Assembly: GCA_965231905.1 (NCBI GenBank)
Contig: CBDDOO010000002.1
Location: forward strand, 714,192 to 778,191
Source: Arenicellales bacterium
Lineage (GTDB): Bacteria > Pseudomonadota > Gammaproteobacteria > Arenicellales > Poriferihabitantaceae
DNA: 64,000 nucleotides
Reading direction: 5' to 3'
Both the position numbers and the translations under genes were made by a program. A model generated the notes under the pieces. The model was not told the DNA's origin. It searched no databases and was given only the letters and a program-made list of their open reading frames with translations. This document shows positions 5,654 through 9,029 of the stretch, one piece after another (within the stretch, counting starts at the first letter, position 1; each line of letters opens with the position of its first letter).

Positions 5654-5818
5654 CAAAAATGATTGAATCTATGATAGATTTGCACATCGTCCGATGTTGG
5701 ATGAATCTATTTACAAAGAACGCGAAGCGTTGTTTTTTCGATTATCGGAGGAGAAAAAATGTCTGAATCCTTGTCCGGGCACTTGACAGGTAATCCGGGA
5801 GAACCTGTTACAATGATT

Positions 5819-6030
5819 GCCAGCCAGCCAGCCAGCCAGCCAGCCAGCCAGCCAGCCAGCCAGCCAGCCAGCCAGCCAGCCAGCCAGCCAGCCAGCCAGC
5901 CAGCCAGCCAGCCAGCCAGCCAGCCAGCCAGCCAGCCAGCCAGCCAGCCAGCCAGCCAGCCAGCCAGCCAGCCAGCCAGCCAGCCAGCCAGCCAGCCAGC
6001 CAGCCAGCCAGCCAGCCAGCCAGCCAGCCA
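5819..6030 (+). repeat. Perfect tetranucleotide microsatellite (GCCA)x53, equivalent to AGCC/CCAG/CAGC
   Basis: 212 nt with no interruption. The three 60-nt lines 5821-6000 are identical. The last A is the A of ATG 6030. Confidence 0.98.
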
Positions 6031-9029
6031 TGAGGTTTTCTGGCATCCGCATGGGGTTTCGTCTGCGGTTCTGGTTTGCCGCATGCCTGCTGTTCGCGGG
6101 GACCGGTTTCCTGTCGTCCGGCACTCAGGCGCAGACACCAACCGTGCAACTGATACGGAGTGCCCTCGCTCCTGAAGTTGTCGAGGGCACCGAGGGGGCT
6201 TTTAATATGTTCTTGCGCCCGAATAAGGAAGCCCATCCCGCCACAGTGGTCGTGCGTTACCGCGCGACAGGCACAGCGACCCGCAACACCGACTACCGGT
6301 GGGTATGCGGTGAACCGCAGCCTGGGGTCAGGTGCAGCAACCTGGTCACCGGCGACCTGACGATCACCCTCACGACCGCCCAACTGAGAGAATCCGGCCT
6401 GCCTGATGTTGCGAGGATTGAAGCGATCACCGACAGCTCAAGCGACGACGGCGAGACGGTGGTCCTGACCGATGTCGACAGGCCCACCCAGAGCGCGGCC
6501 TGGACGATCAAGGACCCGGCGCCGGTTAAGTTGGGCTTTATCAGAAATGCGAAGGATTTGTATGAAGCGGAGGCGGCCTTCACACACCGGGTCTCGATAC
6601 GAATGAGCAGCATCTATCCGCAGGACATCACGATTCCGCTGACGTATGGAAGCAGTGGGACCGCGACATCCGGGACGGACTATCAGCAGGTGGGGTCGGT
6701 CACGATTCGCGCCGCAGACATGACAGTGCGACCCGGGGGCTCGGCACAAGGCCTTTTCTATATCGCGCAGATCCTCCCGAACCGGGAGAGCGAGAACAAC
6801 GAGACGTTCACGGTAACGCTGAACTTGGCCGGCGCAACGCCAGCCGGTTCGGTAACGGGCTTGTTGACCAGCTGCCTGAGTGGTAATCCCTGCTACGACA
6901 CGCTCACCGCGACCATTCTGGATGCGGGGGTCGTGTCATTTGTTGACGGGGCCACGTCGACGGTCTCCGAGGAAGGCGGGCCGCACCAGATCCGTCTGAG
7001 TCGCAGCAAGACGCATGGTACCGCGCACGTGCAGTATCAGGTCAGTGGCACGGCGCGCCTCGGCGACAGCGGGGATTTCACCCCGGTCTTCAGCACAATA
7101 GCAGACGGGAATTACCAGTTGCCGAAATGGTTCCACGGGTCAGACGGACAAACGCTGACGCTGAACATTCACGATGACGAGTGCGCCGAGGGGCCCGAGA
7201 CGATCCAGGTGCGGCTGGTCGACGCGGTCGGCATCGGCGTCTTTGCGCCGCAGGGAGCCGCGGCGGTGCACACCGTCACGATTGAGGACGATGATACGGT
7301 AGTATGCCGGGCGCCGAGCCGTCCGGTGACGGATCTCATGCCATCCTTCGGCGCGAGCGCAGTGGCGGACCAGAACTGGACACGGGGCGAGGCGATTACG
7401 CCGTTATCGCTTCCGGTTGCGACCGGCGGCGACGGGACGCTGACCTACAGCCTGTCCCCGGCTCCACCGGCGGGCATGACCCTGGATACCAGCGCCCGCA
7501 GCTTGAGCGGCGCCCCCGAACAGGCACAGGAAGCCACCCGATACACTTGGACCGCGACCGATGCAGACGGAGACGCCGTCACACTCGAGTTCACCATTGC
7601 CGTGACGGAGAATATTGCGCGGATGCAGGATCAGGTGATACGTCCCGCGTTAGCGGCGATGGCGCGACTCTCCCTGTCGAGCGCCCTGGAGAATATCGGC
7701 TCGCGTTTTGGAGATTTCGGAGCGGACGATCTGACCCTGGCCGGACACGCGGTTCCGATGAGCGCGACCGGCCTCCCGGAAGCCTTGCGCCCCTGTTCGC
7801 CGGTACTGACCGATCCCGCGGCAACATCCTCAACGGACTGCCGTTTCCACAGCAGAGGATGGAGTTCAGCGGAACTGCTTCATGCCAGTGATTTCTCCTT
7901 ATCACTGGAGGCGTCCGACCCGGCATCGGGCGCGGCGCGCTGGTCCATCTGGGGACGGGGCGACTGGGGCAGTTTCACCGGGAATGGCACAGAGCCACAG
8001 ACCCGCCATGAAGGCGAACTGCAATCAGGCTGGCTGGGACTGGACGCACGCGTCGACCACCGGGTGATGGGACTGGCCTTCTCCCGCAGCCAGGGAGAAA
8101 CCGACTACACGATGGAAACAGACGAAGGCCGACTGGAGACCACCCTGAACGGAGTCTACCCGTATGGCCGCTGGACATTGAACAATGGACTCGAGTTACG
8201 CGCCGTACTGGGCGCTGGCGAAGGCGAAGCGCGGCATCAACCGCAAGGCGGCGAAGCGATGAGTAGCGACCTGTTGATGTGGATGGGTTCTGTAGGCGTG
8301 CGCCGTCCGCTGGCTCCGGCCGATGGGATTGATCTGGCATTGCGTCTGGAAGCGAGCCGCGCCCGCTTGCGGACTGCGGCGGGACGAAACCCGATTGACG
8401 GTCTGGTTGCCGACAGTTGGCGCCTTCGGGCGGGAATGGAAGCGTCGAAGCGCTTTATTCGCGCAAACGGAGCGGAACTGGAACCTTTCCTGGAAGCGTC
8501 GGTGCGGCGGGACCGGGGAGACGGACTGGAAGGCGGTGGCATTGAACTGACGGGTGGACTGCGTTACGGTCGTCCGGGACTGTCGATGGAGGCGCGTGGA
8601 CGCTGGCTGGCGGCGCACCAGGAAAAAGGCGCCAGAGAAAGCGGCGCCAGCGTGACGGTTCGGGGCGGAGCCGGAGCGGGCGGACGTGGACTGTGGTTTA
8701 CGCTGCAACCGCGCTGGGGCGCCGGAACCGGCTCCCTGGCTTTATGGAATGAAGAAGCGCCACGGATGGAGAGGGACGTGAGCGCGGCTCATTCCCTGGA
8801 TGCCCGATTGGGCTATGGAATGACGCTGCCGGATGCGGGCGGTGTGCTGACGCCATTTACCGGGGCAGTTCTGTCCGGCGAAGACCGGCGCGTTTATCAG
8901 GTCGGGACGCGCTTTGATTCGAGCTTGACGGACTTCGGGATGGAGGTCGTGGGTGAGCGCACGGAGGACGCCGATGCGTCCAATGCCCCCGAACACACGC
9001 TGAAATTCAATCTGCGATACCGATTTTAA
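6030..9029 (+). CDS. Autotransporter outer-membrane protein. The passenger has Calx-beta-like and cadherin/dystroglycan-like Ig repeats.
   Basis: Signal peptide MRFSGIRMGFRLRFWFAACLLFAGTGFLSSGTQAQ. Calx-beta-type signatures NETFTVTLN, HDDECAEGPETIQVRLVD and VTIEDDD. The segment TLTYSLSPAPPAGMTLDTSARSLSGAP...TWTATDADGDAVTLEFTIAV is cadherin-like. The C-terminal ~280 aa is Gly/Arg/aromatic-rich beta-barrel ending LKFNLRYRF. Start uncertain (see findings). Confidence 0.8.
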   Translation: MRFSGIRMGFRLRFWFAACLLFAGTGFLSSGTQAQTPTVQLIRSALAPEVVEGTEGAFNMFLRPNKEAHPATVVVRYRATGTATRNTDYRWVCGEPQPGVRCSNLVTGDLTITLTTAQLRESGLPDVARIEAITDSSSDDGETVVLTDVDRPTQSAAWTIKDPAPVKLGFIRNAKDLYEAEAAFTHRVSIRMSSIYPQDITIPLTYGSSGTATSGTDYQQVGSVTIRAADMTVRPGGSAQGLFYIAQILPNRESENNETFTVTLNLAGATPAGSVTGLLTSCLSGNPCYDTLTATILDAGVVSFVDGATSTVSEEGGPHQIRLSRSKTHGTAHVQYQVSGTARLGDSGDFTPVFSTIADGNYQLPKWFHGSDGQTLTLNIHDDECAEGPETIQVRLVDAVGIGVFAPQGAAAVHTVTIEDDDTVVCRAPSRPVTDLMPSFGASAVADQNWTRGEAITPLSLPVATGGDGTLTYSLSPAPPAGMTLDTSARSLSGAPEQAQEATRYTWTATDADGDAVTLEFTIAVTENIARMQDQVIRPALAAMARLSLSSALENIGSRFGDFGADDLTLAGHAVPMSATGLPEALRPCSPVLTDPAATSSTDCRFHSRGWSSAELLHASDFSLSLEASDPASGAARWSIWGRGDWGSFTGNGTEPQTRHEGELQSGWLGLDARVDHRVMGLAFSRSQGETDYTMETDEGRLETTLNGVYPYGRWTLNNGLELRAVLGAGEGEARHQPQGGEAMSSDLLMWMGSVGVRRPLAPADGIDLALRLEASRARLRTAAGRNPIDGLVADSWRLRAGMEASKRFIRANGAELEPFLEASVRRDRGDGLEGGGIELTGGLRYGRPGLSMEARGRWLAAHQEKGARESGASVTVRGGAGAGGRGLWFTLQPRWGAGTGSLALWNEEAPRMERDVSAAHSLDARLGYGMTLPDAGGVLTPFTGAVLSGEDRRVYQVGTRFDSSLTDFGMEVVGERTEDADASNAPEHTLKFNLRYRF

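Follow-up and report, generated by a model that had tools for sequence, protein, structure and literature searches.

A candidate slipped-strand translational switch before an autotransporter gene of an Arenicellales bacterium

A perfect tetranucleotide tract, (GCCA)53, runs into the start of an autotransporter gene in the DNA analysed here, a stretch of 64,000 nt from an Arenicellales bacterium (family Poriferihabitantaceae; assembly GCA_965231905.1, contig CBDDOO010000002.1, positions 714,192 to 778,191; hereafter the window). From comparison of sequences, we think that this tract is probably, though by no means certainly, the mutable element of a slipped-strand translational phase-variation switch acting on a surface autotransporter. 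The original prediction, made from the letters of the window, had proposed such a contingency tract, out of frame with the gene and read from an upstream start codon that is equipped with a Shine-Dalgarno (SD) sequence. This model is supported by a comparison of thirteen copies of the cassette that carries the tract, by the reading frames on both sides of it, and by the locking of its unit number to the codon phase of the gene downstream.

The tract occupies positions 5819–6030 of the forward strand. Tandem Repeats Finder reports 53.0 copies of period 4 with 100% matches and no indels (score 424), in agreement with the 212 nt of uninterrupted repeat described before, and the last base of the tract is indeed the A of ATG 6030. 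It is a long perfect simple sequence repeat (SSR) with a unit length that is not a multiple of 3. No second GCCA tract exists anywhere in the 64-kb window, and a 12-nt GCCA pattern had no match in 100 shuffles. The count given here is that of the assembled sequence, the exact n = 53 in the organism being checkable from reads only; since related contigs are named in metaMDBG style and the sponge metagenome-assembled genomes (MAGs) of Candidatus Poriferihabitaceae stem from PacBio HiFi data, a gross assembly artefact is unlikely.

ATG 6030 opens an open reading frame (ORF) of 999 codons on the forward strand, which ends at 9029, begins with MRFSGIRMGFRLRFWFAACLLFAGTGFLSSGTQAQ and encodes a passenger with Calx-beta and He_PIG domains and a C-terminal beta-domain. 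PF03797 was matched at residues 640–831 (E-value 1e-10), together with PF05345 (He_PIG), PF03160 (Calx-beta) and TIGR01414. The signal peptide, judged by eye from the translation as were all others in this study, comprises about 34–35 residues (6030–6134, forward strand) with a basic n-region, a hydrophobic core and a TQA/AQ cleavage motif, and is homologous to the MTRFWGRFAGIRF...LLLLPLLAGF...A.A leaders of related loci. The signal peptide and the autotransporter of about 1000 codons that had been read from ATG 6030 are thus borne out. Signal peptide, passenger and C-terminal beta-barrel together give the layout of a classical (type Va) autotransporter as defined in PMC3960869, and the gene is, by its autotransporter, Calx-beta and He_PIG domains and its signal peptide, one of surface or host interaction. 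Gene callers choose ATG 6030 as the start; upstream of it lies repeat alone, without an SD sequence, as had been stated before. The nearest homologue of the autotransporter, P0002, is 85% identical and P0003 is 75% identical; no contig placement was found for P0001 and P0003.

A second start codon precedes the tract. The SD sequence GGAGGAG (5747–5753, forward strand, read from the sequence; its equivalent in the related locus L001 is AGGAGAG) is followed by a 5-nt spacer and ATG 5759, which confirms the strong initiation signal claimed for this codon. In the present phase, the frame of ATG 5759 is a leader ORF of the form MSESLSGHLTGNPGEPVTMI-(ASQP)n followed by 48 out-of-frame codons and a stop (5759–6175, forward strand; stop codon 6173–6175), again as predicted. 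The two starts are 271 nt apart (6030 − 5759), which is 1 mod 3, so that they are one nucleotide out of register, and the earlier arithmetic that 52 or 55 units would fuse the two frames is correct. As a protein query, the leader-ORF product gave generic low-complexity matches, mostly eukaryote-like, none of which contained the VTMI-ASQP junction.

To place the tract in a wider context, 185,579 species-representative genomes were scanned for TACAATGATTGCCAGCCAGCC. All 11 sites detected (L002–L012) lie in a single MAG (CBDBQH01) of Candidatus Poriferihabitaceae, a sponge-associated family of the Gammaproteobacteria, order Arenicellales. Together with the window and L001, these sites give 13 copies of a cassette with the consensus TTGACA-N20-TGnTACAATGATT-(GCCA)n, which can be resolved as TTGACA-N20-TG[T/C]TACAATGATT-(GCCA)n. 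The unit number ranges from 11 to 53 among these paralogous and related cassettes, a comparison between copies and not between strains; L002 has at least 30 units, its tract being cut by the end of the locus, and the downstream frame could be analysed in 12 of the 13 loci. Tracts are perfect in all copies except L004, where (GCCA)26 is followed by an extra A, about eight units, another extra A and about seven units (7616–7785); this sole imperfect tract may mark a partly locked copy. In every MAG locus with downstream sequence (10 of 10), an open frame with a signal-peptide-like start follows the tract, and the ORFs extend over 869–1966 amino acids, or remain open to the end of the locus, where enough sequence is available. 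Models of Calx-beta and/or of autotransporter or outer-membrane-protein barrels were matched in four of the five large ORFs scanned, although mostly weakly and below the Pfam cut-off. More distant high-GC homologues (P0004 and P0006 at L013 and L014, P0017 at L019) carry no tract. A scan of Joint Genome Institute (JGI) metagenomes for the cassette gave no match, a second scan, with a protein alignment, gave only Calx-beta relatives of 24–43% identity, and the sole simple repeat in 313 kb is one unrelated run of ten C (L032).

The frames that flank the tract are constrained on both sides. Upstream, the leader frame (that of the ATG embedded in TACAATGATT, which is the frame of ATG 5759 in the window) is open for 117–426 nt in all 13 loci. 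Neither of the other two frames is open: every locus has a closure at −5, and most have one at −28. The closure at −5 consists of a TGA directly followed by TTG; in the window (5814–5819, forward strand), the stop terminates the frame that currently continues into the autotransporter. Lengths of 46, 54, about 65, 80 and 90 codons were found for the leader ORFs, and the indels behind these differences (24, about 39, 78 and 132 nt) are in frame and stop-free without exception, at least 4–5 of them being independent. Pooled over the loci, the leader frame contains no stop in 733 codons, compared to about 51 expected from the off-frame stop density. In the MAG, it starts at a conserved ATGATGAAAAGAGAATCAG, with AGGA 7–9 nt before it in several copies, and sigma-70-like promoters are found further upstream, one of which was called by the consensus scan (TTGACA-18-CATAAT, 11 of 12 matches).

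Downstream, each of the 12 loci has a single frame that continues without a stop from the tract into the large ORF, and the other two stop within 0–142 nt. In the MAG loci, the tract is separated from the hydrophobic core of the signal peptide by 35–136 codons rich in repetitive extragenic palindromic (REP) elements, which contain no stop in 735 codons against 19.6 expected. In L008, neither ATG nor GTG nor TTG occurs between tract and core, and L009, L011 and L012 have none of them near the core; for this reason, translation must enter from the side of the tract. From this comparison, the tract would lie in translated sequence, after the start codon and ahead of the body of the gene.

For each locus, f denotes how far the large-ORF frame is offset from the base that follows the tract, and the locus was assigned to the class (n + f) mod 3. 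Two loci are in class 0, in which the large ORF is in frame with the leader ORF (L007, n = 24; L011, n = 27), and ten are in class 1, which is the phase of the window (window, n = 53; L001, 11; L003, 15; L004, 26; L005, 20; L006, 27; L008, 24; L009, 36; L010, 17; L012, 13). No locus is in class 2, in which the leader ORF would stop at or just past the end of the tract. The chance of finding at least 10 of 12 loci in any one class is P = 0.0016. Further, among copies with a common downstream junction, unit numbers are separated by multiples of three (53/11/20, 27/36, 15/24 and 26/17). Locking to a codon phase over 44–212 bp is not expected of a mere 5′ leader or of a neutral microsatellite, and it is mainly for this reason that we prefer a translational switch. 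A DNA-level, helical-phase cause of the three-unit periodicity was considered and rejected, since 12 nt does not correspond to a helical repeat and tract lengths span 44–212 bp.

The end of the tract has a further property. In the window, ATG 6030 overlaps a TGA (6031–6033), forming ATGA at 6030–6033 on the forward strand, and this TGA would be the stop of the leader ORF at 51, 54 or 57 units. In 9 of 12 loci, the large-ORF frame has its first ATG, and the class-2 frame its first stop, within this tetranucleotide; it adjoins the tract in the window, L001 and L005 and follows 10–21 nt after it in six MAG loci, while L003, L004 and L008 are devoid of it. After the ATG of the large ORF, the A is constant and the next two bases vary (AGG, AGT, ATC, ATG, ATA, AAG). 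A stop-start overlap is the classic geometry of translational coupling, for instance at the junctions of the trp operon, and ATGA as a restart site is suggestive. A near-cognate ATT start in place of ATGA in L003 and L008 was rejected, since this ATT is outside the large-ORF frame, and recoding of UGA was dismissed by inference from taxonomy and genome size.

From the tract, its frames, the conserved cassette, the length differences between copies and the phase bias, we infer the following course of slippage, productive phases and restart. An mRNA starting upstream of 5747 would carry the strong SD sequence and ATG 5759, and ribosomes would pass from a 20-codon leader into the tract, which they would read as (Ala-Ser-Gln-Pro)n. 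A replication slip that adds or removes one unit (4 nt) would shift the frame in which the ribosome leaves the tract. With n = 1 mod 3 (52 or 55 units), the leader would be fused in frame to the autotransporter, and leader and repeat would form a long n-region of the signal peptide that is removed on export. With n = 0 mod 3 (51 or 54), the leader ORF would end on TGA 6031–6033, overlapping ATG 6030, and terminating ribosomes could restart on this SD-less codon to give the native precursor. With n = 2 mod 3, the present 53 units, leader ribosomes would overrun the start by 145 nt in the wrong frame and the SD-less ATG 6030 would be poorly used, leaving the gene off or low. With the same cassette before at least 11 other genes for large surface proteins in the genome of a related sponge symbiont, the outcome would be combinatorial and reversible surface variation.

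How fast such changes might occur can be estimated from Haemophilus influenzae, whose tetranucleotide tracts mutate at a rate linear with length (u = 2e-5*L − 2e-4, calibrated for 17–38 units; PMC3546556). At L = 53, this relation would give about 9e-4 changes per generation, extrapolated past the calibrated range. As single-stranded DNA, the two strands of the tract differ in self-pairing: the TGGC strand forms a slipped hairpin of −38.7 kcal/mol per 142 nt compared to −7.6 kcal/mol for the essentially unstructured GCCA strand. This asymmetry could bias expansion versus contraction, depending on the direction of replication.

The comparison shows that the present phase is special, its ON or OFF state following only indirectly. 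We favour the reading in which fusion and restart would both be productive, the present phase would be the sole OFF state and most copies would be held OFF. In the opa family of Neisseria, few of the 11 genes are expressed at a time. The favoured reading resembles that family (11 members; PMC11868660) in holding most copies OFF. A scheme in which fusion is the only ON state, with two neutral OFF phases, fits poorly, as the OFF copies are distributed 10:0 in favour of one phase; it is contradicted by the 2:1 contraction bias of one-unit slippage in H. influenzae (36 deletions vs 18 insertions; PMC3546556), which would make the missing phase the commoner one.

The present phase might, on the other hand, be ON. 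In this rather improbable alternative, translation starts at TTG 5817 and reads (Pro-Ala-Ser-Gln)53 in frame with the autotransporter (5817–9029, 1070 amino acids); selection holds most family members in this phase, and a change by one unit turns the gene off. The ORF from 5817 to 9029 is open, the TGA-TTG is kept in every copy, L008 needs a start upstream of its leader, and 10 of the 12 loci show this phase, with the other two a single contraction away from it, which fits the 2:1 bias (PMC3546556). However, TTG 5817 lacks an SD sequence in either cassette type, it would be absent from a transcript of the adjacent −10 element, and it sits inside the leader ORF that is translated from a strong SD sequence in another frame. 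We favour an OFF state because the TTG start would have to initiate without SD inside that ORF, and because it leaves the conserved upstream start, the in-frame leader indels and the ATGA unexplained.

The original prediction had itself named an alternative, in which an extended −10 element starts transcription at the first repeat units. The element TGtTACAAT is present at 5806–5814, and TTGACA at 5783–5788 precedes it with a 20-nt spacer (block 5783–5814, forward strand, inside the leader ORF). If this block drives transcription, the whole tract belongs to an untranslated CA-rich leader and translation begins at ATG 6030 itself, with tract length acting as a rheostat or being inert, in either case independently of frame; we consider this unlikely. 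The promoter-like block is its strongest point: none of the 13 loci departs from the hexamers or from the 20-nt spacing, whereas the cassette types differ in the sequence of the spacer, and CTG[T/C]TACAAT varies at one base only, which corresponds to the 'n' in the extended −10 consensus TGnTAnAAT and makes a non-synonymous (Val/Ala) change in the leader frame. This pattern suggests selection for a promoter element and not for a peptide. It is also in keeping with this alternative that an ATG adjoins the tract in the window, L001 and L005, that ATG 6030 is the choice of gene callers, and that the sense-strand repeat is weakly structured as RNA (weak GC/GC stacks, −36.6 kcal/mol per 142 nt). 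Promoter or 5′ untranslated region (UTR) repeats that act as rheostats of adhesin genes are found in Moraxella UspA2 (AGAT), a precedent for such a leader, and Neisseria NadA (TAAA). The 7-bp repeats of H. influenzae hmw1A/hmw2A are another precedent; they lie between a promoter-like element and the start of an adhesin gene, as here, and are transcribed within the 5′ UTR (PMC12721329). Unlike these rheostats, whose length dependence operates via transcription or RNA structure, the tract is flanked by constrained frames and its n is phase-locked, and these properties argue for a translated tract even though a promoter-like block adjoins it. An untranslated leader accounts neither for the phase lock, nor for a leader frame kept stop-free across in-frame indels, nor for a locus such as L008 with no start codon after the tract. 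Moreover, a spacer of 20 nt is outside the usual 16–18, the consensus scan (spacers up to 18 nt) found no promoter at this site, and ATG 6030 lacks an SD sequence. Thus, the promoter-like block of the original alternative stands, whereas the frame constraints remain unexplained by it. An active internal block could, alongside the switch, produce a transcript without the leader ORF whose first AUG is that at 6030, and hence a basal expression independent of phase.

The absence of any switch is, in our view, very improbable. Here, the tract would be a neutral runaway microsatellite on a mobile or recombining cassette before decaying surface genes, or its length an artefact of assembly or consensus. 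The gene does lie on an inserted module absent from close relatives, the related loci are riddled with REP-like insertions, and the L004 tract is interrupted. Nevertheless, the large ORFs are intact (869–1966 amino acids), tracts are perfect in 12 of 13 loci, the relatives were assembled from long accurate reads, and open frames on both sides of a tract with a phase lock are not expected of neutral microsatellites.

Several points weigh against the translational switch that we prefer. As 11 of the 13 loci are paralogues from one MAG, the statistics given above overstate independence, the in-frame indels being separate events, and the conservation of ATGA is based on few independent substitutions. 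Variation of n is seen between copies of the cassette, and the gene is missing from the closest relatives. The ON/OFF assignment is indirect, and the present phase could equally be a selected ON phase via TTG 5817. The promoter-like TTGACA-N20-TGnTACAAT ends 4 nt before the tract, and its transcripts would omit ATG 5759. Finally, the fusion phase implies 90–250 residues before the signal peptide, which is unusual.

The gene and its cassette form an accessory module. Alignments to relatives delimit an insertion of about 3.57 kb (5630–9198, forward strand) within the last codons of aroB, which comprises the cassette, the tract, the autotransporter gene and a 3′ tail; mrcA, aroK and aroB lie upstream and gltB downstream. 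The left break follows GAATACTTC (5629), and the original aroB end CTGGATTGA is found again at about 9200 (alignments A2 and A3). The GC content is 63–66% in the insert vs about 55% in the flanks. Comparison of the orthologous locus, which had been proposed as a check on the tract, covered the three closest relatives (L015, L016, L017; long metagenome-assembled contigs, AroB 88–92% identical) and showed aroB followed directly by gltB, with no autotransporter and no tract, so that it yielded no orthologous tract to compare. The sequence from about 5644 to about 9137 is common to L001, the locus of P0002, which is in another MAG between recJ and rpoE; the shared part, regulatory region included, begins about 170 nt before the tract and ends about 110 nt beyond the stop codon. 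Because the module is shared with L001 in another context and is absent from the closest relatives, gene and cassette travel together. The multi-copy cassette family on an inserted module, like the stop-start overlap of the third phase, is an addition to the original prediction. At the junctions, the AroB C-terminus reads ...EYFTLSSQSA* in the window vs ...EYFALD* in the relatives, its last codons having been replaced by the insertion (5621–5653), and the displaced original end ACTGGATTGA survives at the right junction (9189–9208). Both junctions carry a short ACTT, possibly duplicated from the target. Within the module, the L001 autotransporter has a 294-nt tandem duplication of a He_PIG-type domain (6867–7440; two copies, 92% identical), of which the window protein has a single copy, and the 3′ tail contains a 19-nt tandem repeat of 2.1 copies (9048–9088) where L001 has a 30-nt gap.

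A candidate promoter upstream of the leader ORF (5650–5680, forward strand) consists of TTGACA at 5650–5655 and TATGATAGATT at 5670–5680. It is kept in L001 despite different flanking genes and may act as a promoter, although TATGAT and TAGATT lie at the non-canonical distances of 14 and 19 nt, respectively, and no call was made by the consensus scan. Between this block and the SD sequence lies a short GC stem-loop, AACGCGAAGCGTT, with a T run (5719–5738, forward strand), a terminator-like match; L001 carries a T run at the corresponding position. No Rfam family was matched anywhere in the window.

The MAG loci show further structures around the cassette. In L002–L012, REP-like palindromes occur within the ORF between the tract and the signal-peptide core and also within the leader ORF, always in frame. 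They include ATTCCC-N8-GGGAAT, which we take to be the same consensus as that of Neisseria dRS3, CCCCCCTTGAGGGGG and GGGACGG-N-CCGTCCC (e.g., on the reverse strand of L005, 90–330 nt past the tract). Owing to these insertions, the predicted signal peptides of L002–L012 have n-regions of 35–136 residues after the tract. On the reverse strand of L007, about 130–200 nt upstream of the tract, a partial second cassette (TTGACATCCGAATGGCAAGATGCTGCTACA) is in frame inside the leader ORF; it has neither ATGATT nor any repeat and looks like a cassette that lost its tract or a recombination scar.

Simple repeats of other composition were found in comparable positions. L018 (2520–2700), on a 2.93-Mb circular metagenomic contig, contains a 34%-identical Calx-beta/He_PIG/autotransporter homologue with ATGATGACT-(G)21 directly before the signal-peptide region; 21 G lead to a TAA after the tract, 20 or 23 G would be in frame, and the gene caller places the start about 450 nt too late. 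In the window itself, at 60723–60960, GGAGG-N7-GTG 60735 opens a leader that reads through a run of 24 C (60781–60804) and stops at TAA 60816–60818, 5 nt after the SD-less ATG 60811 of a 250-amino-acid ORF with a signal peptide, possibly of twin-arginine (Tat)-like type (SKRKII start). This is a second candidate slipped-strand locus with an architecture like that of the GCCA locus. With the (G)21 of L018 and the C run of the window, the layout of an SD-led leader ORF, a simple repeat and a signal peptide recurs independently with other repeats.

Phase variation by SSRs is textbook biology of human-adapted pathogens, and SSR contingency loci, the class to which the mechanism would belong, are well known. 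According to PMC2651432, the tetranucleotide tracts of H. influenzae lie within ORFs, mostly N-terminally, and encode hydrophilic peptides, with AGCC at 12–27 units in mod. As in lic1A (CAAT), hgp (CCAA) and mod (AGCC/AGTC) of that species, the tract described here is a perfect tetranucleotide in the 5′ coding part of a host-interaction gene that encodes a hydrophilic peptide, with the frame set by unit number, and AGCC of mod is GCCA in another register (PMC3546556; PMC2651432). The differences are that the organism belongs to an uncultivated sponge-symbiont lineage; that the gene is an autotransporter and not a lipooligosaccharide, haemoglobin-receptor or methyltransferase gene; that 53 units compare to 37 as the longest value in an excerpt of Table 6 of PMC2651432; that the tract lies upstream of the signal peptide with ATGA at its end; and that one conserved cassette is common to many genes. 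The modA/modB phasevarions have the same repeat unit and the same slipped-strand logic, but their genes encode type III methyltransferases. The comparison with modA made in the original prediction thus holds for the repeat unit and not for the gene, which has autotransporter, He_PIG and Calx-beta domains only, encodes a surface protein and implies no epigenetic regulon.

The closest layout is that of Neisseria opa, with CTCTT repeats in the region coding for the leader peptide (PMC3960869) and 11 opa genes in a gonococcus (PMC11868660): a multi-copy outer-membrane family with independent switching by a non-triplet repeat that leaves the mature protein unaffected. The eleven cassettes in one MAG show this arrangement of paralogous surface genes, each with a repeat in its leader region. 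In opa, however, a pentamer is repeated within the sequence for the hydrophobic core of the leader, whereas here the unit is a tetramer upstream of the core with a separate leader ORF. Opa proteins are small 8-stranded barrels without homology to the autotransporter, and the likeness is one of layout only.

We found no report in the literature of SSR phase variation in sponge symbionts, and the family name Poriferihabitaceae appears in a single genome note. What is new is the occurrence in an uncultivated marine mutualist lineage and the presence of one portable cassette before at least 12 surface-protein genes, with tracts of up to 212 bp; the three-phase logic with its stop-start overlap is possibly new as well. 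Gene callers mis-start or split such genes, a practical concern for annotation. For the family as a whole, we advance a more tentative picture, which may well be wrong: Candidatus Poriferihabitaceae might carry a dozen or more adhesin-like genes behind one portable three-phase cassette with two ON modes (fusion and ATGA restart) and a single OFF state, most copies being OFF in the host. On this picture, no contingency-locus or antigenic-variation-like system would have been described before in a mutualist of a marine invertebrate. If the switch is real, the family would comprise at least 12 genes that encode large Calx-beta/Ig-like surface proteins and switch independently of one another, and the tract phase in long-read metagenomes would be a direct, cultivation-free read-out of the surface proteins expressed in situ. 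An uncultivated mutualist would then diversify its surface stochastically inside its host, a variation directed toward phagocytic sponge cells or phages and bearing on the escape from both.

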